From an uncultured Rhodothermales bacterium (GTDB lineage Bacteria; Bacteroidota; Rhodothermia; Rhodothermales; CAYLXM01), in NCBI GenBank assembly GCA_964539455.1, contig CAZIIP010000001.1, positions 104,521-151,310 of the forward strand: a stretch of DNA of 46,790 bases, given 5' to 3'. The position numbers and the translations under genes were made by a program. Positions 34,616 through 46,790 of this stretch are shown piece by piece. How positions within the stretch are numbered: position 1 is the first letter of the stretch; each line of letters starts with the position of its first letter. The notes beneath the pieces were generated by a model, which was given only the letters and a program-made list of their open reading frames with translations, was not told the origin of the DNA and searched no databases.

Positions 34616-34649
34616 ACACATATATTAAACACATGTGTGAAATATGTGT
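34616..34649 (+). promoter_or_regulatory. Composite operator candidate upstream of imuB
   Basis: ACACAT at 34616 and 34629, and ATGTGT at 34633 and 34644 (11-bp period). The central pair forms the palindrome ACACATGTGT and the outer arms ACACATAT/ATATGTGT are complementary. Positions 34633-34647 are identical to 43505-43519. Confidence 0.6.
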
Positions 34650-34664
34650 ATCGCCTGGTTTAAT

Positions 34665-35795
34665 ATGATTGCCTGTCTTCACATAAGGGATTATCCGGCA
34701 TGGGTCATGCGGTATCGTTATCCGGATGCTGCGCTTGCGGTATTTCACCGGGGGCGTATTCTGGCCAGGAATCGGAAGGCACGGCGGAAGGTGCAAGTGG
34801 GAGAGTTGGTCGAGCGTGCACGTTCGGCGCATCCGGAGGTGCAGTTTCTGGGGCGGGACACGCATGAGGAGGAGATTCGCTGGGAGTATGTACTCGAGAA
34901 GATCAACCGGTATACGCCGCTGGTTGAATCTGCAGTGCCCGGCACGGCCTATTTCCAGCCGCTTGAGGGTCGGGTGCCGGCGCCGCCGGCACGGGAGTTG
35001 TCGGTGCGGGTTGGTGCCGGACCGTCTCGTGCAGTGGCCCGCATTGCGGCCGCCCGTACCCACGACGGGCATTTTCTCGAGATCGCCCCGCGAGGCGTGC
35101 GAACGTTTTTGCGGGCATCGCCCGTTTCGACACTCTGTGACCTGGGATTTCCGGAAGAGATGGTCGAGCGGCTGACCCTTTTCGGGCTGGACAATCTGGA
35201 GCGTATCAGGCAACTGACGCGACGACATCTGACTGCCCAGTTCGGTGCGGATGGTGAGGCGCTGCATGATTTACTGGATTTGCAGAAGACCGACCCGCCC
35301 ATTGCCGTCTACCGCCCGTCTCCAGCGATTTTATGTTTTGTGGATTTCGAGAACGACGTCATCGAGCCGGCGGATATTCTTCCCGCCCTGCAGCATCTGG
35401 TAAGTGAGGCGAGGGACGCGCTCGAGGGACTGGTGACCTCCCGCATCACCCTCGAAACAACGGGCAAAAGCGAAGGGGCAAACCGGATATGCTCGGCAGT
35501 ACTTAAATCCGGCACCTCCGATGCGGGGATCCTCTTTCGCGCGGCGGAACGAAGGCTGAAGAAAAACTGGCCACAGGCGGCGATTTCCCGGATTCGTCTC
35601 ATTCTGGGTGCACTGGGTTATGCCAGGCACCACCAGGGCGCCCTGTTCTTCCAGCGGCCGGACGTCCAGACGGCTGTTCGCCGTGTCCACCGCCGGTATC
35701 CCAATGCTCTGCTGCGTGTCGTGCCGGCAGAGCGGCGGTTGCCGCTCGAGGAGGCCGACGGGTTGTCGTTTGTGCCATACCGCTCCGCCTCATGA
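34665..35795 (+). CDS. imuB: ImuB-like Y-family polymerase homolog (catalytically inactive type)
   Basis: Start MIACLHIRDYPAW (34665; the ORF opens at 34644). Y-family-like fold without the DMDAFF acidic motif seen in dinB. It is followed by dnaE2 in the same orientation. Confidence 0.75.
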   Translation: MIACLHIRDYPAWVMRYRYPDAALAVFHRGRILARNRKARRKVQVGELVERARSAHPEVQFLGRDTHEEEIRWEYVLEKINRYTPLVESAVPGTAYFQPLEGRVPAPPARELSVRVGAGPSRAVARIAAARTHDGHFLEIAPRGVRTFLRASPVSTLCDLGFPEEMVERLTLFGLDNLERIRQLTRRHLTAQFGADGEALHDLLDLQKTDPPIAVYRPSPAILCFVDFENDVIEPADILPALQHLVSEARDALEGLVTSRITLETTGKSEGANRICSAVLKSGTSDAGILFRAAERRLKKNWPQAAISRIRLILGALGYARHHQGALFFQRPDVQTAVRRVHRRYPNALLRVVPAERRLPLEEADGLSFVPYRSAS

Positions 35796-36025
35796 AACGC
35801 ATTGATGAACCGATACGGGTACAGACGAGCGGCAAACGCATCGAAGCCGTCTACTGGCACGGCCGCCGCATTGCGGTGCACGAGCAGACGAATGCGTGGA
35901 TTGTCCGCAGCCGGTGGTGGGGAAGTGAAGAGAAACGGATTTATCGGACGCTGCAGACGGATAAAGGCCATATGGAGGTGTACCAGGTCGGTGATTTGTG
36001 GCGATTGAGCCGCCTGGCGGATTAA
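35792..36025 (+). CDS. Small Trp/Arg-rich protein embedded between imuB and dnaE2
   Basis: 77 aa. Its ATG overlaps the imuB stop (ATGA at 35792-35795) and its stop lies 2 nt before the dnaE2 ATG (36028). Sequence: IEAVYWHGRRIAVHEQTNAWIVRSRWWGSEEKRIYRTLQTDKGHMEVYQV. Confidence 0.6.
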   Translation: MKRIDEPIRVQTSGKRIEAVYWHGRRIAVHEQTNAWIVRSRWWGSEEKRIYRTLQTDKGHMEVYQVGDLWRLSRLAD

Positions 36026-36027
36026 AA

Positions 36028-39000
36028 ATGTTCACTCATCTACACGTACGAAGCTGGTTTTCGTTTTTGCGGGGTGCGTCGCCTCCCGACCAACTGGTCG
36101 AGCAGGCCGCCGCCCTGGGGATGCGTGCGCTGGCGATTACCGATATCAAGGGCATGTACGGCGTGGTGCGCCACCAGCTTGCGTGCAAGGAGCATGGACT
36201 GAAGCCGGTATTCGGCGCCGAGGTGGTGGTCGGGGGTCGGCCCCTCGTACTGCTGGCAAAAACGCGGACAGGGTATGCAAACATTTGCCGCCTTTTAACC
36301 CAGGGATTTCAGCGGACGGAGACGCCCGAGTCGGACGTACGGGTTGAAGAACTGGCTGCGGTGGGCGAGGACGTTATCTGTTTGACGGGAGGTGCGGAAG
36401 GGCTGCTGTGGGATGCGGTGCATCGCAAGGCGTATCCGAAGGCACGAAACTGGGTCGATCATCTGCGGGGAATTTTCGGTCGAAACCTGTACGTTGAGCT
36501 GACGAACCAGCTTCGTCCGGACGACCGGCGGATGGTTACGCGCATGGCGCGCTTTGCGTCCGAGTGCCGTCTGCAGGTGGTGGCGACGGGAGATGTCCGC
36601 TATGCCACACCGGAAGGGTATGCCCTCTATGATCTGATGACGTGTATTCGCACCCACCAGACAATCTTTGAGGGCCATCCGGAGCGTCCGGTAAACGACC
36701 AGGCCTTTTTGCGTCCCGAGGCGGAGCTTCGCCGGTTGATTCCGCATCCTGAAGCGTTTCGCAACGCGGAGCGGATCGAAGCATCCTGCTGCGTGGATCT
36801 CTTGCCCGAGTACATCACCCCACCCGGGGCACGCCTGCCGGCGGGCGTTTTGCCCGAGACACATTTGCGAAAACTGTGCGACGAGGGGTTAAAGACCCGC
36901 TACGCAGCCGGGGAGCGCAAACGGGCACGGGCGCAGATGGAAAGAGAGTTGAAAGTGATCTGCGGACTGGAATTGGAGGAGTTCTTTTTGGTCGTTCGCG
37001 AAGTGGTAGATGAGGCCGCCAGAAGAAACATCCGGTGTGCCGGTCGGGGATCGGCCGCCAACAGCATCGTGGCCTATCTGCTGGGCATCACCCATGTCGA
37101 TCCGATTGCTCACCGGCTTCTCTTCGAGCGCTTTCTGCATCAGGGACGAAAAGGGACGCCGGATATCGACATCGATTTCGATTCGGACCGGCGCCTGGAG
37201 ATCGTCGAGTGGATAGAGGACCGGTTCGGCGTCGAGCAGACGGCCATGTCGGCGACGCTGCAGACCTACCAGTTGCGGTCCGCCCTTCGGGATGTCGCAA
37301 AAGCCCTGGGTTATCCGGAGCAGGTGCTGCGGGCCTTCAGTACAGCTGTGCCGCATCGGCCCGCTACCCGGATCGACGAATACAGGGAGCAGGTCATCAG
37401 CATTCTCGGTGGAGAAACCCCGCTGGCCAGGGCGCTGGTCGAAGGTGTGTGGGCACTCGCCGGATGTCCACGGCACCTCGGACAGCACTCGGGGGGCATG
37501 GTGCTGTCACGCGCACACCTCCATGCGTTTACACCGGTGCAGACCTCGGCGAACGGTGTAAAGATGGTCCAGTTTGACAAACGCGACATCGAGCGGCTGG
37601 GACTGGTCAAACTCGATGTGCTGGGACTTCGTATGCTGGCGGCACTGAGCTTCGCCGAGGAGTTGATCCAGCGCACCCATCCCGAGCCGTTTAATCTCGA
37701 TAAGGTACCGCTGGACGACCGGCCGACGTTCGATATGATCCGGGCAGGGGAGACGATCGGGCTGTTTCAGATCGAATCACAGGGCCAGTTGCATTTGCTG
37801 GCGATGAACCAGCCCGAGACGTTTCAGGATTTGATCGCGGAGATCGCGCTGTTTCGTCCGGGGCCCGTTCAGGGCGGCATGGTTCGTCCCTTCGTGCGGA
37901 GAAGAAAAGGGCAGGAGCGGGTGCAGTTTCAGGATCCGTCGCTGGAACCGATTCTGAAGGACACCTATGGGATTATCCTGTTTCAGGAACAGGTGCTGGA
38001 GGTCGCTCACAAATTCGCCGGCATGAGCCTGCAGGAAGCGGACGATTTCAGGGCGCTGATGTCGAAGTTTCGGGATCCGGGTCAAATGGAATCGATGCGC
38101 ACGGTGTTCGTCAACGGCGCCATGCGGCGCGGTGTATCGGAGAAGGTAGCCCAGGAAGTGTTCGAAAAGGTCTCGAAGTTCGTCGGCTACGGCTTTTGCC
38201 GAAGCCATGCCGCAGCATTCGCCAAAACCGTCTTCCAGTCCGCTTATCTGAAGAAGCACTTTCCTGCCGCCTACATGGCGGCGGTTATGCAGCACATGCC
38301 CGGCATGTATCCGGTCATGACCCTCGAACAGGAGGCAAAACGGCTGGGTGTGCAGGTGTTGTCGCCCGACGTCAACCACAGCGGGATCCTGTATGATCTA
38401 GAGCACCGGGGATATGGCGTGTATGCGATTCGCAAGCCGCTGACGTCGATCAAGGCGGTTTCATTGGAATCGGCGCGGACCATCTTTTTGGAGCGCCTGA
38501 AGGGGCCGTTCAAAGATGTCGAGGACTTTTACCGGCGCTGTGCGGTGGACAAGGATGCCATGGAAAACATCGCCCGGTCGGGTGCGCTGGACGAACTGAC
38601 ACACGGCAGCAGGAAGGCGCTCTGGGAAGTGGGCGTTCTGCACCGAAGACTGGGCACAGCCGGCCGAATAGATCCGCAACAGCACCTTTTCAGCATGCAG
38701 GCACTAGAAGCGGTCGATCTGCCTGCGCTGGCGGAGCTGGGAATCGACGAGCGGCTGAGCTGGGACTATCAGACGCATGGTGCGGCGCGACATCATCCCA
38801 TGACCGTTGTCCGGCGCCAGCTGAATGAACTGGAAGTCCGTCCGGTCAGCGTCTGTTACCAGTACGCACAACCCGCACTGCGTGGCAAGGCGCCCGTGAT
38901 CCAGACGGCCGGCATCGTCATCCTGCGCCAGCGACCGCCGACGGCAAAGGGATTCATGTTCATCACCCTGGAAGACGAGACGGGTTTTATTCAGTGTGTC

Positions 39001-39216
39001 GTCAATCCGCAGGCACAGGATCTTTACGGTCACATGCTCAACAGCGCCGCCCTGATCGTTCAGGGCGAACTGCAGTCCGAGAAAAACTGGCGCGGCATCA
39101 TCCTGCAGCAGGCCTGGCGACTGGATGCCGTTTTTGGCGGATACAAAGGACATGCAAGCTACAGTGGCGGTAGAGACAGGCACGTTGTGTCGACTGCCGA
39201 CGCAGTCAATTCATGA
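36028..39216 (+). CDS. dnaE2: Error-prone DNA polymerase III alpha homolog DnaE2 (ImuC)
   Basis: About 1062 aa from MFTHLHVRSWFSFLRGAS (PHP domain). Pol III alpha core motifs and an OB-fold C-terminus. It lies in a cassette with imuB. Confidence 0.92.
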   Translation: MFTHLHVRSWFSFLRGASPPDQLVEQAAALGMRALAITDIKGMYGVVRHQLACKEHGLKPVFGAEVVVGGRPLVLLAKTRTGYANICRLLTQGFQRTETPESDVRVEELAAVGEDVICLTGGAEGLLWDAVHRKAYPKARNWVDHLRGIFGRNLYVELTNQLRPDDRRMVTRMARFASECRLQVVATGDVRYATPEGYALYDLMTCIRTHQTIFEGHPERPVNDQAFLRPEAELRRLIPHPEAFRNAERIEASCCVDLLPEYITPPGARLPAGVLPETHLRKLCDEGLKTRYAAGERKRARAQMERELKVICGLELEEFFLVVREVVDEAARRNIRCAGRGSAANSIVAYLLGITHVDPIAHRLLFERFLHQGRKGTPDIDIDFDSDRRLEIVEWIEDRFGVEQTAMSATLQTYQLRSALRDVAKALGYPEQVLRAFSTAVPHRPATRIDEYREQVISILGGETPLARALVEGVWALAGCPRHLGQHSGGMVLSRAHLHAFTPVQTSANGVKMVQFDKRDIERLGLVKLDVLGLRMLAALSFAEELIQRTHPEPFNLDKVPLDDRPTFDMIRAGETIGLFQIESQGQLHLLAMNQPETFQDLIAEIALFRPGPVQGGMVRPFVRRRKGQERVQFQDPSLEPILKDTYGIILFQEQVLEVAHKFAGMSLQEADDFRALMSKFRDPGQMESMRTVFVNGAMRRGVSEKVAQEVFEKVSKFVGYGFCRSHAAAFAKTVFQSAYLKKHFPAAYMAAVMQHMPGMYPVMTLEQEAKRLGVQVLSPDVNHSGILYDLEHRGYGVYAIRKPLTSIKAVSLESARTIFLERLKGPFKDVEDFYRRCAVDKDAMENIARSGALDELTHGSRKALWEVGVLHRRLGTAGRIDPQQHLFSMQALEAVDLPALAELGIDERLSWDYQTHGAARHHPMTVVRRQLNELEVRPVSVCYQYAQPALRGKAPVIQTAGIVILRQRPPTAKGFMFITLEDETGFIQCVVNPQAQDLYGHMLNSAALIVQGELQSEKNWRGIILQQAWRLDAVFGGYKGHASYSGGRDRHVVSTADAVNS

Positions 39217-39516
39217 ACCATGAATTGAACCCGCACTACCCGCTTCAACGATCGACTCACCCGCAACCACAAAGATCTTGTCTCCCGGCGCAGGGGTGAA
39301 GCGTCTGTTTCCGGTAAACGTTCCGAAAGCGGGGAAAATGGCGCGCCGCTCTCCCATCACGAAACAGGGGAGACGAAGACGCTGCTGCGCGCCTCCGGAG
39401 AATGAGATGCCGGCGTGGATATGACCGGAGATGACGTAGCCCGGTGGGAGATTGTCTGTATCAACAGCCGAACACTGCCTTTTCTGAAAAGTGCCGCGTT
39501 GCTCACTGTACGTCAT
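39211..39516 (-). pseudogene. C-terminal remnant of a PdeM-like (ligase-associated) metallophosphoesterase
   Basis: SGHIHAGISFSGGAQQRLRLPCFVMGERRAIFPAFGTFTGN matches my recollection of the C-terminal part of PdeM-type phosphoesterases. The N-terminal metal-binding motifs (DxH, GDxxH, GNHD) are absent. The only ATG (39516) overlaps the last codons of the Prim-Pol gene. Confidence 0.4.
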
Positions 39517-41014
39517 TTCCGGGGAAAAGCGGCATCTGGTCCTCCGATGTTGAAGCGCCCTCCCCGTCCGGTTCACTTCCGGATGTAAGGGCGGAGCCCT
39601 GTGCATCCTGAAACAGGCCGGGCTGATCGAAGCGGTATTCGAATCCGTGCCGTTGCAGTACGATCAATGATTTTCGCGGAGTCTCATCAAACCGGCTCTT
39701 GGTCAGCAGTACGCGTTCCCGCGTATGGTCACCAACCTGCTCCAGATGCACCTTAATGTCGACAAATGGATCGAGGGGTGTATCCGGAATGCGCCCTTGT
39801 GAGGTATTGTCGGAAGGGAGATCCCACACGGCAAAGAGGCCGACGCCTCGCAAAATGGCTTTCAGCAGAGGCTGCATGACGTAGTCCGCATCTACCTGCC
39901 GGGAGCCGTCCATCACCTCGCGTCCGGCGAAAGCATTCAGCCGGTCGATAACAATCAGGCGTGCCTTTACGGTAGTGCAGCGATCCACTGCGGCCGCGAT
40001 CAGCTTTGGCCAGGACACATCCAGTGACTCCTGATAGTGAAGCACGTGAAGCCTGTTGAGAAACAGATGGTTGTAGCCGCGGGCCAGAATGGCCCTGCCC
40101 AGGGACGCCGGCGATTCCGACGTGAGAAGCACGACACTTCCCTGAACGGATCTGCGCGTCAGGAATTCGGAGCCCTCCAGCACTGAGCGGATGAGATGAA
40201 GCGCGAAGGTGGTTCTCCCGCTGCCTTTTTCCGTTCCGTGCAGCAAGGTAATTGCCTGGGTAGCCGCCCAGGGTTCATTGATCCATATGCTCGAATTGTC
40301 CGCCGCCACGTCGAATCCCGTGCGGAACGGCAAATCCGGCATTTCCTCGCCCATTTCTGTCTGGGCTTTGTTCTCCGTGCGGGTACGAACGCGCAAATTG
40401 CATCTTCGGAGAATCCATCCGGGGACGGGCGCAACGGAGGTCTGCCGGATGGTCGCACCTGGGTCCCACGAGCTCTCTTCCCAGCGATCCCCGTACAGGT
40501 GAACGGACGGTGGTGCGAAAACCACTTCTCCTTCTCCCAGAAGCGTAATGCCGGGTGCGATAGGTGTCGAACCGGCCGGCATTGCTGATGGATCGGCCGA
40601 AAACAGGTGGACAAGCCGGTCGGAGGACGCCAGGATGGTTGGCGTCTTCGGAAGCATCCCGTGCATGATCTCGAGTTCGTTGGCGCTCGCCAAACCGTCT
40701 CGTCCGTCTATCAGCAGCGCGACCAGGCGTGCATCGGCGCCCAGCGCCATACCAATGCGTGCATGGGGGTGGGTTTGCCACCAGCGCTCTATGTGATCGC
40801 GGTTGGAGGTGGCCCTGTCGATTCCAAAGTATTGACAGCGTGTGGAGGGCTGCCGGCAGTCGGCATTCGAGAGTTCACAAATGCATTCTCCGGCACGTCT
40901 CCTGCCTCTGCGGACGGACGGCAGCGGCAGGACAGGATATCCGAGTTCCGCAATTTCCAGTGCCGCCCGTCTCAGTCGCTCTCCAACTCTGTCGGTTCGT
41001 CCGTTTTCAGCCAT
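39503..41014 (-). CDS. Bifunctional Prim-Pol (archaeo-eukaryotic primase-like) / RecA-like AAA_25 ATPase fusion
   Basis: 503 aa. The N-terminal Prim-Pol-like region has ELGYPVLPLP, ERWW, IGMALG, LLIDGRDG, LVHLF and VVFAPPSVH. The C-terminal P-loop domain has LLHGTEKGSGRTTFALHLI and Walker B RLIVIDRLNAF. Confidence 0.75.
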   Translation of the reverse strand: MAENGRTDRVGERLRRAALEIAELGYPVLPLPSVRRGRRRAGECICELSNADCRQPSTRCQYFGIDRATSNRDHIERWWQTHPHARIGMALGADARLVALLIDGRDGLASANELEIMHGMLPKTPTILASSDRLVHLFSADPSAMPAGSTPIAPGITLLGEGEVVFAPPSVHLYGDRWEESSWDPGATIRQTSVAPVPGWILRRCNLRVRTRTENKAQTEMGEEMPDLPFRTGFDVAADNSSIWINEPWAATQAITLLHGTEKGSGRTTFALHLIRSVLEGSEFLTRRSVQGSVVLLTSESPASLGRAILARGYNHLFLNRLHVLHYQESLDVSWPKLIAAAVDRCTTVKARLIVIDRLNAFAGREVMDGSRQVDADYVMQPLLKAILRGVGLFAVWDLPSDNTSQGRIPDTPLDPFVDIKVHLEQVGDHTRERVLLTKSRFDETPRKSLIVLQRHGFEYRFDQPGLFQDAQGSALTSGSEPDGEGASTSEDQMPLFPGNDVQ

Positions 41015-41221
41015 GCCGCTCGTCTCGTTTTCGTTTCCGGCTCATCCGGCAACGTTTTCGAGGTGCATTTGCATGCGCATGATCCATTGCTCGGGTGACT
41101 TCAAACTTAAGCCTTCCCGTAGCCTTTCCGCCAGCAATGGGAAACAAAAAGGTGCCGGCTGCAGCCGTTCCACAAGCAAATCGTCTGCTCCCGGTATGCA
41201 AAACCATTCACGCTGACGCGC

Positions 41222-41593
41222 TCAATAGTTCACGCCCGTGTTTTCTTCCGGCGCGTTGTCGTGTGTATCATCCGACGTCTTGGGCATGAGGCTGTTGCTG
41301 ACAGCGTAGTAGCATGCGATGTAGTAGATCTCCATCTCGCCGCGCGTTTCCACCCGCTCGATGTGGACGATATTGAAGCGGGCGTCGGGAAAACGTTCCC
41401 CGAGGACCTTCGTCAGATCGTCTCGAACACGTCCCGGTGTCCGCGGCACTACCGACTGCTCGATTGAACATCGAAAGCTGCCCTCGATGCGCAGAATGGA
41501 GAGGCCGCGAAGGTCGAGCCACTCCCGTAGCGGGGTCTCTTGGTCGACGAACTGAAACGGCCATTCCTGAAACTCGACGATCTGCTTTGCCAT
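41222..41593 (-). CDS. Hypothetical protein (123 aa) between dnaA and the Prim-Pol gene
   Basis: The start is set at MAKQIVEFQEW (41593). It follows the dnaA terminator. I recognised no family. Confidence 0.45.
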   Translation of the reverse strand: MAKQIVEFQEWPFQFVDQETPLREWLDLRGLSILRIEGSFRCSIEQSVVPRTPGRVRDDLTKVLGERFPDARFNIVHIERVETRGEMEIYYIACYYAVSNSLMPKTSDDTHDNAPEENTGVNY

Positions 41594-41638: not shown

Positions 41639-41666
41639 AAAATACAAAAAGCGCCCGAGAGGACGC
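41639..41666 (-). terminator. Rho-independent terminator after dnaA
   Basis: On the minus strand, GCGTCC-TCTC-GGGCGC (one G-U pair) is followed by TTTTTGTATTTT. It begins 35 nt after the dnaA stop. Confidence 0.6.
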
Positions 41667-41700
41667 CTTTGCAACCTGCAGCATCAAACCTGTGGACCGC

Positions 41701-43176
41701 CTACATGGCGCCGAGTTTCTGCAAGAGTTCCTCCACGAGATCATCGAGATCATCGTCGACATCCCGGAGGTTTTCGATCGATTGGACGCCGTGCATGACC
41801 GAAGAGTGGTCGCGCCCGTCAAAGAATGCGGCGATCTTCGTATAGGTATCATATGACACGACCCGGGCCAGATACATGGCGATATGGCGGGCCTGCACGT
41901 GTGGTCGCTTGCGGCTGCGGCCACGCATCACATCGACAGGCACCTGGGTCTGCTCGCTGACCAAACGCGCGATGTCCTTCAAATGAATGGCCCCGAGTGC
42001 TTCGCCCGTAACTTCCGCAATCAGTGTGCCAATAGCAGGTACTTCAAATCCGAATTTGCTCTCCGCCAGCAGCCGGTTGAGAATGCCTTCGATCTGCCTG
42101 ACGCTTCCCCGTGTGCGCGCAATCGTGTCGATCGTCTCGGCGTCCAGATCGAGATCCAACTCGGAAGCCCGCTGTTCTACAATTTGCCGGCGTGTGTCAA
42201 ATCCGGGAGGCGACAGTTCAGCCATTACACCTCCTTGAAATCTGGAGACCAGGGATGTGTTGAGTCCCGGAATCCTGGTTGGTTGTTGGTCGAAGGAGAG
42301 TACAACTTGCTTGTTCTCGTATATCAGGCTGTTGAAAACGACAGCGAACTGGTCCTGGATTTTCTGCGTGCGCCCCAGAAACTGAACGTCGTCGACGATG
42401 AGCAGGTCCAGATGCGCGAAAGACTTTACGAAAGAATGCGCTGACTTTCCTTTAAGAGAACTAACAAATGATGAAGCAAACCTCTCGGTAGTGAGGTACC
42501 GGACCGATCTGTTTTGGCTGTAGGCCATCTGCCCGATGGCCTGCAACAGATGCGTTTTACCGACACCCGAAGTTCCGTAAATAATGAGCGGATTGAACGT
42601 GTGCGCGTCGCGTGCACTTACCAGCATCTTGCCTATGCCGGCAGCAACCTGGTTGCAACGGCCTTCAACGAAACGCTCGAACGAATACTGACGCTGAAGA
42701 CCGATCTCCGCCTGTGCCTGAATGCGCGAAGCGGTCTTGGCAACGGCCACCTCCCGTCCGTTACTTGTGCCGTTCTCCCTGGAAAGTCCGACCGACCGTA
42801 ATTCATGGTTAATCGGACGCGTTCGGGCGGCAACCGCACCATCGCCGGTATTCGTGGTCCTTTCCTCCTCAACAAATCCGATGCGTACCGGGTGGCCCAG
42901 CACAGAAGCCGAGGCGGATGCAATATCCACACGGCGCTTCAAATAATCGCGGTGAAACCGGTTGGGGACGACCAGTTTGAAGACCTCGTGATCGAGCGAA
43001 CGCGCTATAACCGGCTCAATCCAGGTATTGAACTCCACTTCAGTGAGCTGGTCCTTGAGGACCTTCTTGCACTCCCGCCAGGCTTGTTCAGGGTTGAGAG
43101 ACAGGTTGTTTGTAGCAGGTGCGGGAACGGTCATTAAGGTTGGTGCTAAAGGGCGTTTCGCAAGGGCAATTTCCAA
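41701..43176 (-). CDS. dnaA: Chromosomal replication initiator protein DnaA
   Basis: 491 aa. AAA+ Walker A GTSGVGKTHLL, and a domain IV DNA-binding signature (RQIAMYLARVV-like HIAMYLARVVS, DHSSVMHGVQSI). Confidence 0.96.
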   Translation of the reverse strand: MEIALAKRPLAPTLMTVPAPATNNLSLNPEQAWRECKKVLKDQLTEVEFNTWIEPVIARSLDHEVFKLVVPNRFHRDYLKRRVDIASASASVLGHPVRIGFVEEERTTNTGDGAVAARTRPINHELRSVGLSRENGTSNGREVAVAKTASRIQAQAEIGLQRQYSFERFVEGRCNQVAAGIGKMLVSARDAHTFNPLIIYGTSGVGKTHLLQAIGQMAYSQNRSVRYLTTERFASSFVSSLKGKSAHSFVKSFAHLDLLIVDDVQFLGRTQKIQDQFAVVFNSLIYENKQVVLSFDQQPTRIPGLNTSLVSRFQGGVMAELSPPGFDTRRQIVEQRASELDLDLDAETIDTIARTRGSVRQIEGILNRLLAESKFGFEVPAIGTLIAEVTGEALGAIHLKDIARLVSEQTQVPVDVMRGRSRKRPHVQARHIAMYLARVVSYDTYTKIAAFFDGRDHSSVMHGVQSIENLRDVDDDLDDLVEELLQKLGAM

Positions 43177-43234
43177 TATCTATTTCGGCGTTCAGATTAG
43201 AAACTCTGGTCGATTCGAGGCAACCTAAATCTGA

Positions 43235-43404
43235 GACTAGTTGTTCACAGAACCACTAGTCCGTCAACAGGCTTATCCACGACCCGCCCAACAGGTTAAA
43301 TTGCCATGTTTCGGTAGCGTTAAAGGAATGTTGCCGAAACGTAACCAACCGGTGCAATACCATAAGAGTTTGATAATATGTCTTTTAACAGTATGCTATC
43401 CACA
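43235..43404. promoter_or_regulatory. DnaA-box cluster / dnaA promoter or oriC-like region
   Basis: TTATCCACG (43273-43281) and CTATCCACA (43396-43404) each have one mismatch to TTATCCACA. TTGTTCACA (43241-43249) lies in the loop of the hairpin GACTAGT/ACTAGTC (43235-43261). A second hairpin, GTTTCGG...CCGAAAC, spans about 43308-43340. An AT-rich stretch covers 43361-43395. Confidence 0.45.
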
Positions 43405-44610: not shown

Positions 44611-45636
44611 CTACAACAAGCCTTTTCGCTCGGCTACATCGAAAAACCGTCTGGCAATTTCCGCCGTCAATGCCGGTGCATTTCCCCAGGCGCGGTTGTT
44701 GACCAGTATGTTCAACACCTGACCGGCTTCGATGGCTTTGAATATCAGTGCATTTGAATCGTCGATCATGCGGTTGGCCGATGCATGGTCGACCAGTTCG
44801 GGGGCCGGTTTGTCGAACGGATGGGCATGCGCGTAGGCCCTGGCATACGGCATACGCAAGGGGGTAAGCAGCCGCACCACACCTTGTCCATCCGTTGCAG
44901 GGAATCCCTCAACGTGTTCCCATTGGCGTTTCAGCGGCGGGAGCCAGGTCCAGTGGCTGTAAACGAAGCCGAGTCCACGATCTTTTAACCACGCAACATA
45001 TTCCGGCGTGATGAGGTGAGGAGATCGTAGTTCAAGATGCATCTGCGGGCTGTCCGGTAGTTGCCTGAAAAAGGAGTCCAGCGTGGCGATGTTTTCCTCG
45101 TTGGAGGGGCTGTCGGATTTTCGCTGATATTCCTGCTCGAATATTACACCGGCCAGGCGATTTCCCAGGATATCCCGGCAAGGCTTGAGGAAGCGCTCGA
45201 TGAAACCATCGAAATGCAGATACGAGTCGTTTTCTTCGTAGCTCTGTGTCGTACGAATTCTGCGTGCGGCATAGGCCTGTGGGGCCTTTAGAAAAAAGCG
45301 GGCGGAGTCCGGACTGTGTTCGGCGTATCGCCGGAGAACGAAATAGTTATTGGTCGGCTCGCCTTCACGGTTCAGGAGCGTGCGGTAGAAGGTGAAGTCG
45401 ATTTCCAGGCAACCAAAGTGTTCGAAGTAATCGGCGACGGACGTGACGGGGACCGTTTCTTCACGGTACGACTTGCCGCCCAGTTTCCTTGATCTCGAAT
45501 TGATTTTATAAGTGTTTTCCGGATAGATTTGGCCGATCCAGCCGGCATATCTGTCGCTTGTGGTGCCAAACCGGAGGCAAGGATGGACATGGCGAAAATC
45601 GTATTTCTCCAGGTCGGGCATGGTGCGCCTTTTCAC
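44611..45636 (-). CDS. DUF72 (YecE-like, TIM-barrel) family protein
   Basis: 341 aa. The segments LRFGTTSDRYAGWIGQIYP and FEHFGCLEIDFTFY are typical of DUF72. Its ATG directly abuts the lexA-like stop codon (45637-45639). Confidence 0.7.
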   Translation of the reverse strand: MKRRTMPDLEKYDFRHVHPCLRFGTTSDRYAGWIGQIYPENTYKINSRSRKLGGKSYREETVPVTSVADYFEHFGCLEIDFTFYRTLLNREGEPTNNYFVLRRYAEHSPDSARFFLKAPQAYAARRIRTTQSYEENDSYLHFDGFIERFLKPCRDILGNRLAGVIFEQEYQRKSDSPSNEENIATLDSFFRQLPDSPQMHLELRSPHLITPEYVAWLKDRGLGFVYSHWTWLPPLKRQWEHVEGFPATDGQGVVRLLTPLRMPYARAYAHAHPFDKPAPELVDHASANRMIDDSNALIFKAIEAGQVLNILVNNRAWGNAPALTAEIARRFFDVAERKGLL

Positions 45637-46269
45637 TTAACGAATGGCGCGAATGACGGCCCTAACCATGCCGACGACCTCGAGATCCTTACTCTGATCG
45701 GCAAGCTCGATGCGGTAGCCGGGCTGATCGGCCGTGAGTCGAATCAGGTTGTTGGATCGTACAAGTCGGCGTACGATCATCATACCGCTTGTAAGTGCGA
45801 CGGCAATGGCATTGCCGGGAATTTTCGCAAGCTGCCGTTCTTCCGTGACAACGAGATCACCCGACCGGATGCCGGCGGTTCCCATGCCGTCATCACCCGC
45901 AACGACGACCAGGCAATTGTCGGCATCTACGCGTCCCAGGATCGAGCGATCGATCGCCAGCACACCGGAGGCGCCGGCCCGCAGTCCGGCGCGGTCGAGT
46001 CCGGCTGCAGAAGAAACAAACGGAAGATGTGCCGGGAGTTCGTGGGCATGCTCGCTTTCGATCAGATGGATAGAACGCGCTCTGCCCTTCTGCCTGCGAA
46101 GGTATCCCTTTCGCTGCATCGCATCCAGTTGTTTGACCACGCCGTTGGTCGAGCTAATACCGACGGCCGCACCAATCTCTTTTACGGACGGCGCACAGCC
46201 GTGCGCATGGACAAATCCGCTGATCGCATCAAATATCTCCTGTTGCCTGTCTGTAAGCGGAACGCGCAT
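45637..46269 (-). CDS. lexA: LexA-family repressor homolog with substituted Ser/Lys catalytic dyad
   Basis: 210 aa from MRVPLTDRQQEIFDAI (ATG 46269). LexA winged-helix N-domain (APSVKEIGAAVGISSTNGVVKQLDAMQRKGYLRR) and an Ala-Gly site (SSAAGL). The S24 domain reads VAGDDGMGTAGIRSGDLVV and MIVRRL where canonical LexA has GDSM/GMSM and VKRL. I checked both segments against the DNA. Confidence 0.8.
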   Translation of the reverse strand: MRVPLTDRQQEIFDAISGFVHAHGCAPSVKEIGAAVGISSTNGVVKQLDAMQRKGYLRRQKGRARSIHLIESEHAHELPAHLPFVSSAAGLDRAGLRAGASGVLAIDRSILGRVDADNCLVVVAGDDGMGTAGIRSGDLVVTEERQLAKIPGNAIAVALTSGMMIVRRLVRSNNLIRLTADQPGYRIELADQSKDLEVVGMVRAVIRAIR

Positions 46270-46477
46270 GGAATGAATCAGGAAAACCGCACGGAAGGCG
46301 GATTGGTCGACACAAAAACATACCGGATTCGCCGTCGCAATGCCACCCGGAACGTCGCGGTAGAATCCCGGTGTGAAAAGAAAATTCCGGTTGATCGCGA
46401 TCCCGGTAATACGGACTTTGCATCTACTCCGGCACGCCGGTATCGATCCGGTACAATTGCAGCCAGCAGGACCGACC

Positions 46478-46790
46478 ATGTCGCTTATTCTACCCTTCAA
46501 GTCGAAAAAACTGGCCCGCGTCAAGACGAGCAGACGCCAGAAGCTCGAAGAATACGGACAGTTGAATCTGTTTGCCGGCGCGCCTGCAAAAGTCTATCAA
46601 CTGCCCTCCCATCTGCCCGCTTTCCTAACGGCGACCCTGCTGCATGAAAGGGGTGCTCCGGGTGCCCATGCTGCGTACGAACGAGCCATCCAGGAAGGAG
46701 ACCACGTAGACGACGCCTATGTAAATCTCGGCGTAATGGCCTATGAAGCCGATCGCGTCGATGAGGCCTTCACGTGTTTTCGTGAATGCC
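46478..46790 (+). CDS. TPR-like protein, 5' partial (runs off the window)
   Basis: Reading frame open from ATG 46478 to the window end (104 codons). It contains a TPR-like segment, AYVNLGVMAYEADRVDEAFTCFRE, and is divergent from lexA. It is not in the supplied ORF track because it has no stop in the window. Confidence 0.5.
   Translation, partial: MSLILPFKSKKLARVKTSRRQKLEEYGQLNLFAGAPAKVYQLPSHLPAFLTATLLHERGAPGAHAAYERAIQEGDHVDDAYVNLGVMAYEADRVDEAFTCFREC

Follow-up and report, generated by a model that had tools for sequence, protein, structure and literature searches.

A Prim-Pol/AAA_25 protein with replaced catalytic residues beside imuB-dnaE2 in an uncultured Rhodothermales bacterium: a candidate non-catalytic adaptor

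A gene for a 503-amino-acid (aa) protein, in which a Prim-Pol domain is followed by a RecA-like ATPase domain, lies between a dnaA-like gene and an imuB-dnaE2 cassette in a 46,790-nucleotide (nt) stretch of DNA from an uncultured Rhodothermales bacterium (GenBank assembly GCA_964539455.1, contig CAZIIP010000001.1, positions 104,521 to 151,310). This whole stretch is referred to here as the window, and all coordinates are counted from its first letter. Alignment columns suggest that the protein is a double pseudoenzyme, retaining both folds but lacking key catalytic residues in each. The gene and the parts of its product are as follows.

39503..41014, minus strand: gene for the 503-aa PrimPol/RecA-like protein (Pfam matches, AlphaFold2 (AF2) model, four close homologs)
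40382..40987, minus strand: archaeo-eukaryotic primase (AEP, Prim-Pol) fold, residues 10-211 (structural alignment, motif columns)
39620..40333, minus strand: RecA-like ATPase fold of the RepA/DnaB/KaiC kind, residues 228-465 (structural alignment, column counts)
40208..40237, minus strand: P-loop GTEKGSGRTT, residues 260-269, with R267 at the Walker Lys position
39611-39625, minus strand: QPGLF, residues 464-468, a second stretch that looks like a clamp motif
39524..39538, minus strand: QMPLF, residues 493-497, a stretch of the disordered tail that looks like a beta-clamp-binding motif

Fold and active sites of the 503-aa protein

The fusion of Prim-Pol and AAA_25 domains, first proposed from the translated sequence, is confirmed by Pfam, with both domains above their gathering scores. 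Prim-Pol (PF09250) matches residues 18-200 (E 2.1e-20; 74.2 bits versus a gathering score of 22.8) and AAA_25 (PF13481) matches residues 233-367 (E 2.8e-10; 40.6 bits versus 27). The AF2 model has a mean predicted local distance difference test (pLDDT) score of 86.6, and its C-terminal tail is disordered (pLDDT <50 from residue 469). Comparison with solved structures (VIA-align) identifies the AEP fold, which aligns with pRN1 ORF904 (3m1m) at Z 12.7 and a root-mean-square deviation (rmsd) of 3.5 over 170 residues. The RecA-like domain aligns with KaiC (Z 20.9), the RepA helicase of RSF1010 (1g8y; Z 20.4, rmsd 2.9 over 211 residues) and DnaB (Z 19.9). In Pfam, no PriCT match was seen in the 503-aa protein at E ≤ 0.01; PriCT_1 is present in all four canonical long-form relatives tested (P0009, P0010, P0022, P0033). 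Also absent is a C-terminal winged-helix/helix-turn-helix (HTH)-type domain, which two of these four relatives have. An NCBIfam scan gave no family at E ≤ 0.01, the ImuA model NF033429 included, and searches of the sequences of solved structures with the clade profile (see below) and with the single protein gave nothing meaningful.

Relatives of the protein are abundant, and close ones are few. An exhaustive search returned 12,271 relatives at E ≤ 0.001, of which only two 50%-identity cluster representatives are close, the next standing at E 1e-43. Among 5.8 billion proteins, a word-index search found four close homologs, with 50-55% identity. Together with the window protein, these form a clade of five lineages in which the open reading frame (ORF) is intact and of the same length; mean column identity is 66%, and ∼150 positions are invariant. 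In the tree, the stem of the clade measures 2.08 substitutions per site, and the clade falls into one unresolved polytomy with a group of compact relatives of 460-550 aa, here termed short forms. Scans with alignment A1 gave no match in the genome contig collection or in the viral contig collection. A 400-genome sample of the phylum yielded only two matches, both of them long-form, and a profile search of a 200-genome sample of the order gave no close relative.

To assess the ATPase site, we counted alignment columns in 144 domains, comprising the five clade members and 139 relatives outside the clade. The P-loop had been described as atypical in two respects, an Arg in place of the Walker A Lys and one extra residue. 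The first of these stands and is specific to the clade: the column holds R in four members and C in one, compared to K in 139/139 relatives. The second does not, as the one-residue-longer P-loop (G-x-x-K-x-x-G-K-[TS]) is the family norm, found in 111 of the 139. Its inner Lys, K263 in the 503-aa protein, is K in 135 of the 144 rows. We considered the possibility that the Arg reflects a sequencing or assembly error and rejected it, since the four close homologs carry Arg (three) or Cys (one) at this position, never the canonical Lys, and since Logan contigs from two other samples of the same study (runs X2 and X3) have exactly the same P-loop DNA (40208-40237). Judged by these comparisons, the Lys-to-Arg substitution is real, old and specific to the clade.

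The apparent loss of ATPase residues goes beyond the Walker Lys. At the family's catalytic Glu column after strand 2 (LTE[QE]), all five clade members have Ser (S299 in the window protein), compared to E in 131/139 relatives; the adjoining residue, E300, is kept in the clade except for D in one member. The family motif R-H-x-R-K, whose His we take, by analogy with RepA and DnaB, to be a gamma-phosphate sensor, is W-D-L-x-x in the clade (W397-D398-L-P-S here), with D in 5/5 members at the position that is H in 119/139 relatives. Walker B is kept: D357 is invariant in the clade and D in 137/139 relatives, although the residue that follows is Arg in the clade and Thr in 116/139 relatives. The doubt about ATP hydrolysis, raised originally because of the P-loop, is thereby extended to a catalytic Glu and a sensor motif that appear to have been replaced as well.

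A similar pattern is seen in the Prim-Pol domain, where motif columns were counted in 71 aligned domains. Acidic residues occupy all three metal-ligand positions in 54/71. In the 503-aa protein, L101 and D103 (motif I) and T157 (motif III) stand in place of this triad. The first acid of motif I, D or E in 63/71 domains, is L, I, I, L and I in the five clade members; the second is D, Q, Q, Q and D; and the acid of motif III, D or E in 55/71, is T, S, F, W and L. The His of motif II is kept in four of the five (H136 here) and is Tyr in the other. Four cysteines (C44, C46, C53 and C60) are invariant in the clade and form a Zn-knuckle-like cluster, which replaces the C-x-C...C...H knuckle of the relatives. 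Because two acidic positions are lost in 5/5 members, the third is Gln in 3/5 and PriCT-1 is missing, the protein is unlikely to be a working primase.

These columns bear directly on one alternative, namely that the protein is still an active helicase and/or primase with a non-canonical site, R267 or K263 acting as the Walker Lys and E300 as the catalytic Glu. K263, T268, D357 and R434 are conserved in the clade, as are E300 (D in one member) and R441 (Q in one), and the longer P-loop with its inner Lys is a trait shared with presumably active relatives. However, the clade member with Cys at the Walker position also lacks R441, the sensor His motif is replaced in every member, and both the first acid of motif I and the acid of motif III are non-acidic throughout, in proteins without PriCT-1. 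In PolpTN2, moreover, activity was lost when the Asp residues of motif I were replaced by Leu (PMC5862659). We regard continued catalysis as very unlikely.

Downstream of the RecA-like fold, the disordered tail carries the sequence QMPLF, in which Q493, P495 and L496 are invariant in the clade. The consensus for clamp-binding peptides is QL[SD]LF. A complex prediction for the tail peptide and the genome's own DnaN gave a score of 0.53, versus 0.00 for the best control, with a partner pLDDT of at least 38 and runs agreeing in at least 35% of contacts. Of 157 solved complexes, 116 reach the pass mark of this procedure, and of 215 mismatched pairs, 2 do so. Scores at or below 0.60 account for just 18 of the passes among solved complexes and for both of those among mismatches; a pass in this range is wrong more often than not, unless the pairing was already probable. 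One caveat here is that clamp-peptide complexes have already been solved, and hence the pass may reflect memory or likeness. The prediction is consistent with a possible tether of the 503-aa protein to the sliding clamp. Within the tail-coding part of the gene, the window has G at position 39566 and the Logan contig of run X1, which may be the source sample, has A, the sole difference in 2.6 kb.

Neighbouring genes and their distribution

The genes around the 503-aa gene, several of which accompany it in relatives, are listed below.

34644..39216, plus strand: imuB-like gene (34644-35795) and dnaE2 (35998-39216), convergent with the genes that follow (Pfam)
39211..39516, minus strand: remnant of pdeM, which encodes an MPE-type nuclease (TIGR04123; DNA alignment with the related loci L015/L016)
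41042..41179, minus strand: conserved ORF of ∼45 aa, with an uncertain TTG or GTG start (match to L015)
41222..41593, minus strand: ORF123, a conserved protein (four homologs, AF2)
41647..41670, minus strand: terminator-like hairpin of 10 pairs plus a T run, after DnaA2
41701..43176, minus strand: DnaA2, a divergent DnaA paralog (TIGR00362, identity, motifs); the gene-caller version has 477 aa and starts at 43134

The block had been thought to end at a truncated PdeM remnant. The truncation is borne out: the window's PdeM scores 60.9 bits on TIGR04123, compared to a cut-off of 150, and covers only profile positions 141-206 of 207, with ∼440 nt of the 5′ part missing relative to the gene in L015/L016. 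The only run that covers the junction of this deletion is possibly the window's own source. A boundary of an element, on the other hand, it is not. In L015/L016, the stop codon of the 503-aa homolog is overlapped by 4 nt by a full-length PdeM gene (227 aa; 198.5 bits on TIGR04123; match to the MPE nuclease 6nvo at E 7.5e-37), and the two are probably co-translated. By this comparison, PdeM is a conserved overlapping downstream partner in the relative that has decayed in the window's genome, rather than an insertion scar. The window's genome contains no other PdeM and no Lhr-Core-type helicase that reaches its model cut-off.

DnaA2, ORF123, the 45-aa ORF, the PrimPol/RecA-like protein and the MPE nuclease PdeM make up a co-inherited set. 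DnaA2, ORF123 and the 503-aa protein each have three to four close homologs among the 5.8 billion proteins, and one homolog of each lies on what is apparently a single Logan contig, because the contigs of all three homologs measure 11,629 bp. A PADLOC scan for defence systems gave weak generic AAA matches for DnaA2 and nothing for the 503-aa protein, ORF123, a 66-aa frame discussed below or the PdeM remnant.

A broken partner gene is one of several signs that would also fit a relic without present function, left by a plasmid or phage replication module that integrated long ago and decaying under neutral drift. Catalytic residues are gone from both domains, a long stem leads to the clade, most of the wider family belongs to viruses or mobile elements, and plasmid-type Rep3 and ParA genes lie 12 kb away (and also beside a short form in a relative, G197). 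Yet the ORF is intact and of equal length across lineages that share only 50-55% identity, with ∼150 positions unchanged; neutral drift over such a distance would have left stops and frameshifts. Both domains are predicted with high confidence, the neighbouring small genes are co-conserved, composition is host-like, and the sequence is identical in three samples. These observations make simple decay unlikely.

Upstream of the block, the dnaA-like gene had been taken for that of the chromosomal initiator, which would have placed the Prim-Pol gene near the chromosomal origin. Neither claim is upheld. DnaA2 scores 353 bits on TIGR00362 (cut-off, 343.9) and has intact Walker A, Walker B and box VII motifs, but it is only 32-37% identical to the DnaA of relatives, and neither orthology to these nor linkage to dnaN was found. 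Its close homologs number only three (56-75% identity), after which identity drops to 35%. The true dnaA-dnaN pair is on contig C73 of the window's genome, G000 (locus L010, 290-1414 and 1483-3045, minus strand), where DnaA scores 524 bits on TIGR00362, is 59-70% identical to DnaA of five relatives and is followed by dnaN (250 bits). Since the adjoining gene is a paralog and the true pair is elsewhere, the 503-aa gene does not lie by the chromosomal origin. DnaA boxes are not enriched in the window, with five sites at ≤1 mismatch versus 6.9 expected; a scan allowing two mismatches was uninformative. Three of the five sites (8/9 matches) fall within 480 bp (42923-43404), covering the 5′ end of DnaA2 and the region upstream. 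Autoregulation is a possible explanation for this cluster, the window-wide count not being above chance. Second DnaA-like genes occur elsewhere in the order, for example in G002 (L045, C8, 3999-9781), 3.5 kb from ParA, and in G005 (L043, C14), 40 kb from dnaE2 on the same contig; none of the genes of the set was found beside either paralog.

Between DnaA2 and the 503-aa gene, two features of the original prediction are corroborated and one is not. The terminator after dnaA corresponds to an intrinsic-terminator-like hairpin (41670-41647) directly past the DnaA-like gene. The 123-aa ORF is a real gene, with four homologs at 51-76% identity and a mean column identity of 75%. Its AF2 model has a pLDDT of 76.2, and a fold search against the Protein Data Bank (PDB) gave nothing at E ≤ 0.001 (best E 6.7e-3, with template-modelling (TM) scores of 0.33-0.43); scanning the metagenome contig collection with the ORF123 alignment gave no match. 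A basic 66-aa ORF (41007-41207) was rejected, as this frame is not among the open plus-strand frames at the start of the related locus L015. The frame at 41042-41179 is conserved instead: the C-terminal 28 residues of the 45-aa ORF match L015:2-88 at 19 of 28 positions. The 45-aa ORF has no Pfam family. It is in frame with ORF123 and lies 14 codons past the TGA stop of the latter (41179-41224, minus strand).

The set is surrounded by SOS and translesion genes, namely imuB-dnaE2, dinB and lexA. Short forms were sought by profile search in all 285 genomes of the order. Those with both domains are present in G045, G197, G628 and G636, and in G190 one is divided between two contigs. In G045 and G197, as in the window, the gene adjoins imuB-dnaE2 and converges with it. 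In G636, a lexA-imuB-dnaE2 cassette is followed, after a gap of 1.1 kb, by the short form on the same strand, and a DnaA-like gene lies 1.4 kb upstream of imuB. Thus, in the four genomes with the short form next to dnaE2 (G000, G045, G197 and G636), the arrangement is convergent in three and the short form is never upstream of imuB. In G190, a 4.6-kb contig holds the 3′ part of the short form, a DnaA-like gene, LexA and PdeM. At 10 other dnaE2 loci examined, no short form is found beside dnaE2.

The imuB-dnaE2 cassette of this order appears to be ImuA-less. No ImuA in the window's genome reaches the model cut-off, and no recognisable imuA lies upstream of imuB at 10 loci of the order (L053, L055, L058-L063, L066, L067). 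That place is taken by LexA in L053 and L055; L066, too, has a LexA homolog upstream. As ImuA is missing upstream of imuB both with and without a short form, these loci do not allow a pattern of ImuA displacement to be read. A crude LexA-box search, for palindromes shared by the regions upstream of lexA, imuB, dinB, ORF123 and DnaA2, found none. In G161 (L066, C113, 9422-13622), a DUF72 gene sits between imuB and dnaE2, downstream of lexA; its product is 48% identical to that of the window's DUF72 gene, which comes directly after lexA (44611-46524). DUF72 may be part of the SOS cassette of this lineage. In G150 (L063, C3, 4173-5141), an integron integrase gene (TIGR02249, 415 bits) is found directly upstream of imuB-dnaE2.

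The G197 locus (L053, C1, 4825-14415) has lexA-imuB-dnaE2, a convergent short form, ParA and Rep3 within 10 kb, and its Rep3 is 40% identical to that of the window. It repeats the gene set of the window, suggesting one plasmid-derived ancestral block; the recurrence of Rep3/ParA, imuB-dnaE2 and the short form together fits a common plasmid-derived ancestry of the whole region.

The same recurrence could mean that the protein is a structural part of the Rep3/iteron replicon machinery, in an IncQ-like system with DnaA2 as co-initiator, kept as a ring or loader after host DnaB and DnaG took over catalysis. Rep3 and ParA are present in the window as well as directly beside the short form and imuB-dnaE2 in G197, the closest solved folds of the C-terminal domain include the RSF1010 RepA helicase, and in G000, G190 and G636 the short form has a DnaA-like gene nearby. 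In the stretches examined around the G045, G636 and G628 short forms, however, tblastn with the window's Rep3 as query found no Rep3, and in the window itself the 503-aa gene is separated from the Rep3 origin by 12 kb that include metabolic genes. A helicase without Walker Lys, catalytic Glu and sensor His cannot translocate, and the C-terminal winged-helix/HTH-type domain of half the canonical relatives tested is missing. A replicon role therefore has a small probability in our assessment.

Probable domestication and a possible adaptor role

Where did the gene come from? Canonical relatives combine Prim-Pol, PriCT_1 and AAA_25, and the look-alike clusters of the 503-aa protein in the Atlas are mostly viral, so descent from the PrimPol-helicase replication proteins of mobile elements is supported by sequence comparison. 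The gene seems to have been domesticated rather than recently acquired, because its base composition and codon usage are host-like and no integrase, att site or tRNA accompanies it. GC content, GC content at third codon positions (GC3) and codon-usage distance, a comparison called for at the outset, all lie within the range of the window's genes. The initial impression that integrase, att-like repeat and tRNA are lacking also proved correct: no integrase was detected among the ORFs scanned, no flanking att-like repeat is longer than chance-level matches, and no tRNA is present in the window. Hence, none of the marks of an integrated mobile element (integrase, direct repeats, tRNA target or foreign composition) was found for this block. 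The original prediction offered a choice between a mobile-element remnant and a domesticated primase. Mobile-type descent and probable domestication both stand; a working primase is unlikely.

The explanation we favour, with roughly even confidence, is that the 503-aa protein is a domesticated, catalytically dead descendant of a mobile-element primase-helicase, kept as a non-enzymatic adaptor in DNA repair or replication. Such a protein would no longer prime, polymerise or hydrolyse ATP, but would still bind DNA and perhaps nucleotide. RecA mutants of the K72R type bind ATP without hydrolysing it, and the Walker Lys-to-Arg change may have a comparable effect, leaving nucleotide bound. Where forks are damaged or have stalled, the adaptor would recognise a DNA structure, with its QMPLF tail anchoring it to the sliding clamp, and would recruit or control other enzymes, namely the MPE-type single-stranded-DNA nuclease in relatives and possibly ImuB-DnaE2. 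In the window's genome, the nuclease partner would have decayed and the scaffold gene remained intact.

Several observations weigh against this explanation. The loss of activity is read from alignment columns, and some residues that could matter for chemistry persist: E300 adjoins the lost Glu, K263 or R267 might in principle allow some nucleotide chemistry, and 2/5 clade members retain D103 and 4/5 the His of motif II. The clamp prediction is a weak pass obtained with a low-confidence peptide. The sharing of the 11,629-bp contig by three homologs is deduced and not seen directly. As for the partners, pdeM is broken in the window's own genome, and hence the nuclease partnership cannot operate there. 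The gene after PdeM in L016 encodes a four-helix-bundle protein and is not dnaE2, the G628 short form has no dnaE2 within the 18 kb examined, and in the 200-genome sample of the order DnaE2 occurs in 51 other genomes, just two of which have a short form next to it.

A bolder version of the adaptor proposal can be formulated. The short-form PrimPol/RecA-like protein might be an unrecognised accessory subunit of ImuB-DnaE2 that stands in for ImuA, docked on the clamp via a Qxx(L)F tail and reading primer-template or gap structures with its dead primase domain. Together with the DnaA-like paralog and the MPE nuclease, it would make up an SOS-linked fork-repair module that arose from a plasmid replisome in a Rhodothermales-related lineage. 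We think this quite unlikely as it stands.

The known PrimPol-helicase fusions serve plasmids, phages and integrative elements as replication enzymes; the one described here has long persisted despite the loss of most key catalytic residues in both domains. If correct, the scaffold interpretation would provide a clear bacterial case of a replication enzyme turned pseudoenzyme adaptor, and would offer a candidate third component for mutasomes that lack ImuA. In addition, the finding that the dnaA-like gene on this contig does not encode the chromosomal initiator bears on how the nearby Rep3 origin is read.

Comparison with known systems

Mobile-element PrimPol-helicase fusions (pRN1 ORF904-type and the bacterial families covered by Kazlauskas et al. 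2018, PMC5862659) have the same two folds in the same order. They have in common with the 503-aa protein the one-residue-longer P-loop with its inner Lys and a Cys-rich AEP knuckle. The differences are that the 503-aa protein lacks PriCT-1 and a C-terminal winged-helix/HTH domain; that the AEP triad of its clade is degenerate and the Walker Lys, catalytic Glu and sensor His are replaced; and that its gene is not on a recognisable mobile element.

The short forms (460-550 aa; P0013, P0015, P0032 and others, and in this order those of G045, G197, G636, G628 and G190) resemble it more closely. They have the same compact architecture without PriCT-1 and, like the window clade, have degenerate AEP motifs, have lost the RHxRK sensor motif and carry a P-L-F-type motif after the last strand. 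Unlike the clade, they retain GK[ST] and, in most cases, the catalytic Glu. The clade, for its part, differs from the short forms in the extra QMPLF tail and in its linkage to ORF123, the 45-aa ORF and PdeM. No description of short-form Prim-Pol/AAA_25 proteins was found in the literature searched.

The overlap of a relative's MPE homolog with a gene for an ATPase fold recalls the Pseudomonas putida repair operon that contains MPE and Lhr-Core/ligase (PMC7826289; PDB 6nvo). The partner differs, being a PrimPol/RecA-like protein here and an Lhr-Core helicase in P. putida, and the window's PdeM is truncated.

There is also a likeness to ImuA/ImuA' of the ImuA-ImuB-DnaE2 mutasome, in that a RecA-fold protein of doubtful ATPase activity is encoded at an imuB-dnaE2 cassette. 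ImuA is a RecA-like accessory protein. The 503-aa protein, by contrast, is about twice that size, has an AEP domain and does not match NF033429. Moreover, the short-form genes are downstream of dnaE2 (convergent in 3/4 genomes, on the same strand in G636) rather than upstream of imuB, and the 200-genome sample contains 51 other DnaE2-bearing genomes, 49 of them with no short form.

In the IncQ plasmid RSF1010, replication depends on a triad consisting of the iteron initiator RepC, the helicase RepA (1g8y) and the AEP primase RepB'. The window brings together a Rep3 initiator, a RepA-like fold and an AEP fold in one region, and G197 does so again. Here, however, primase and helicase are fused and appear catalytically degenerate, the initiator is of the Rep3 rather than the RepC type, and housekeeping and SOS genes share the region. 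PMC5862659 mentions both the RepB' and the RepA family.

In the literature outside subscription journals and supplements, we found no catalytically dead PrimPol-RepA fusion linked to a DnaA paralog, an MPE nuclease or imuB-dnaE2. These comparisons place the 503-aa protein among the PrimPol-helicase fusions by descent, although by function it is probably not one of them.

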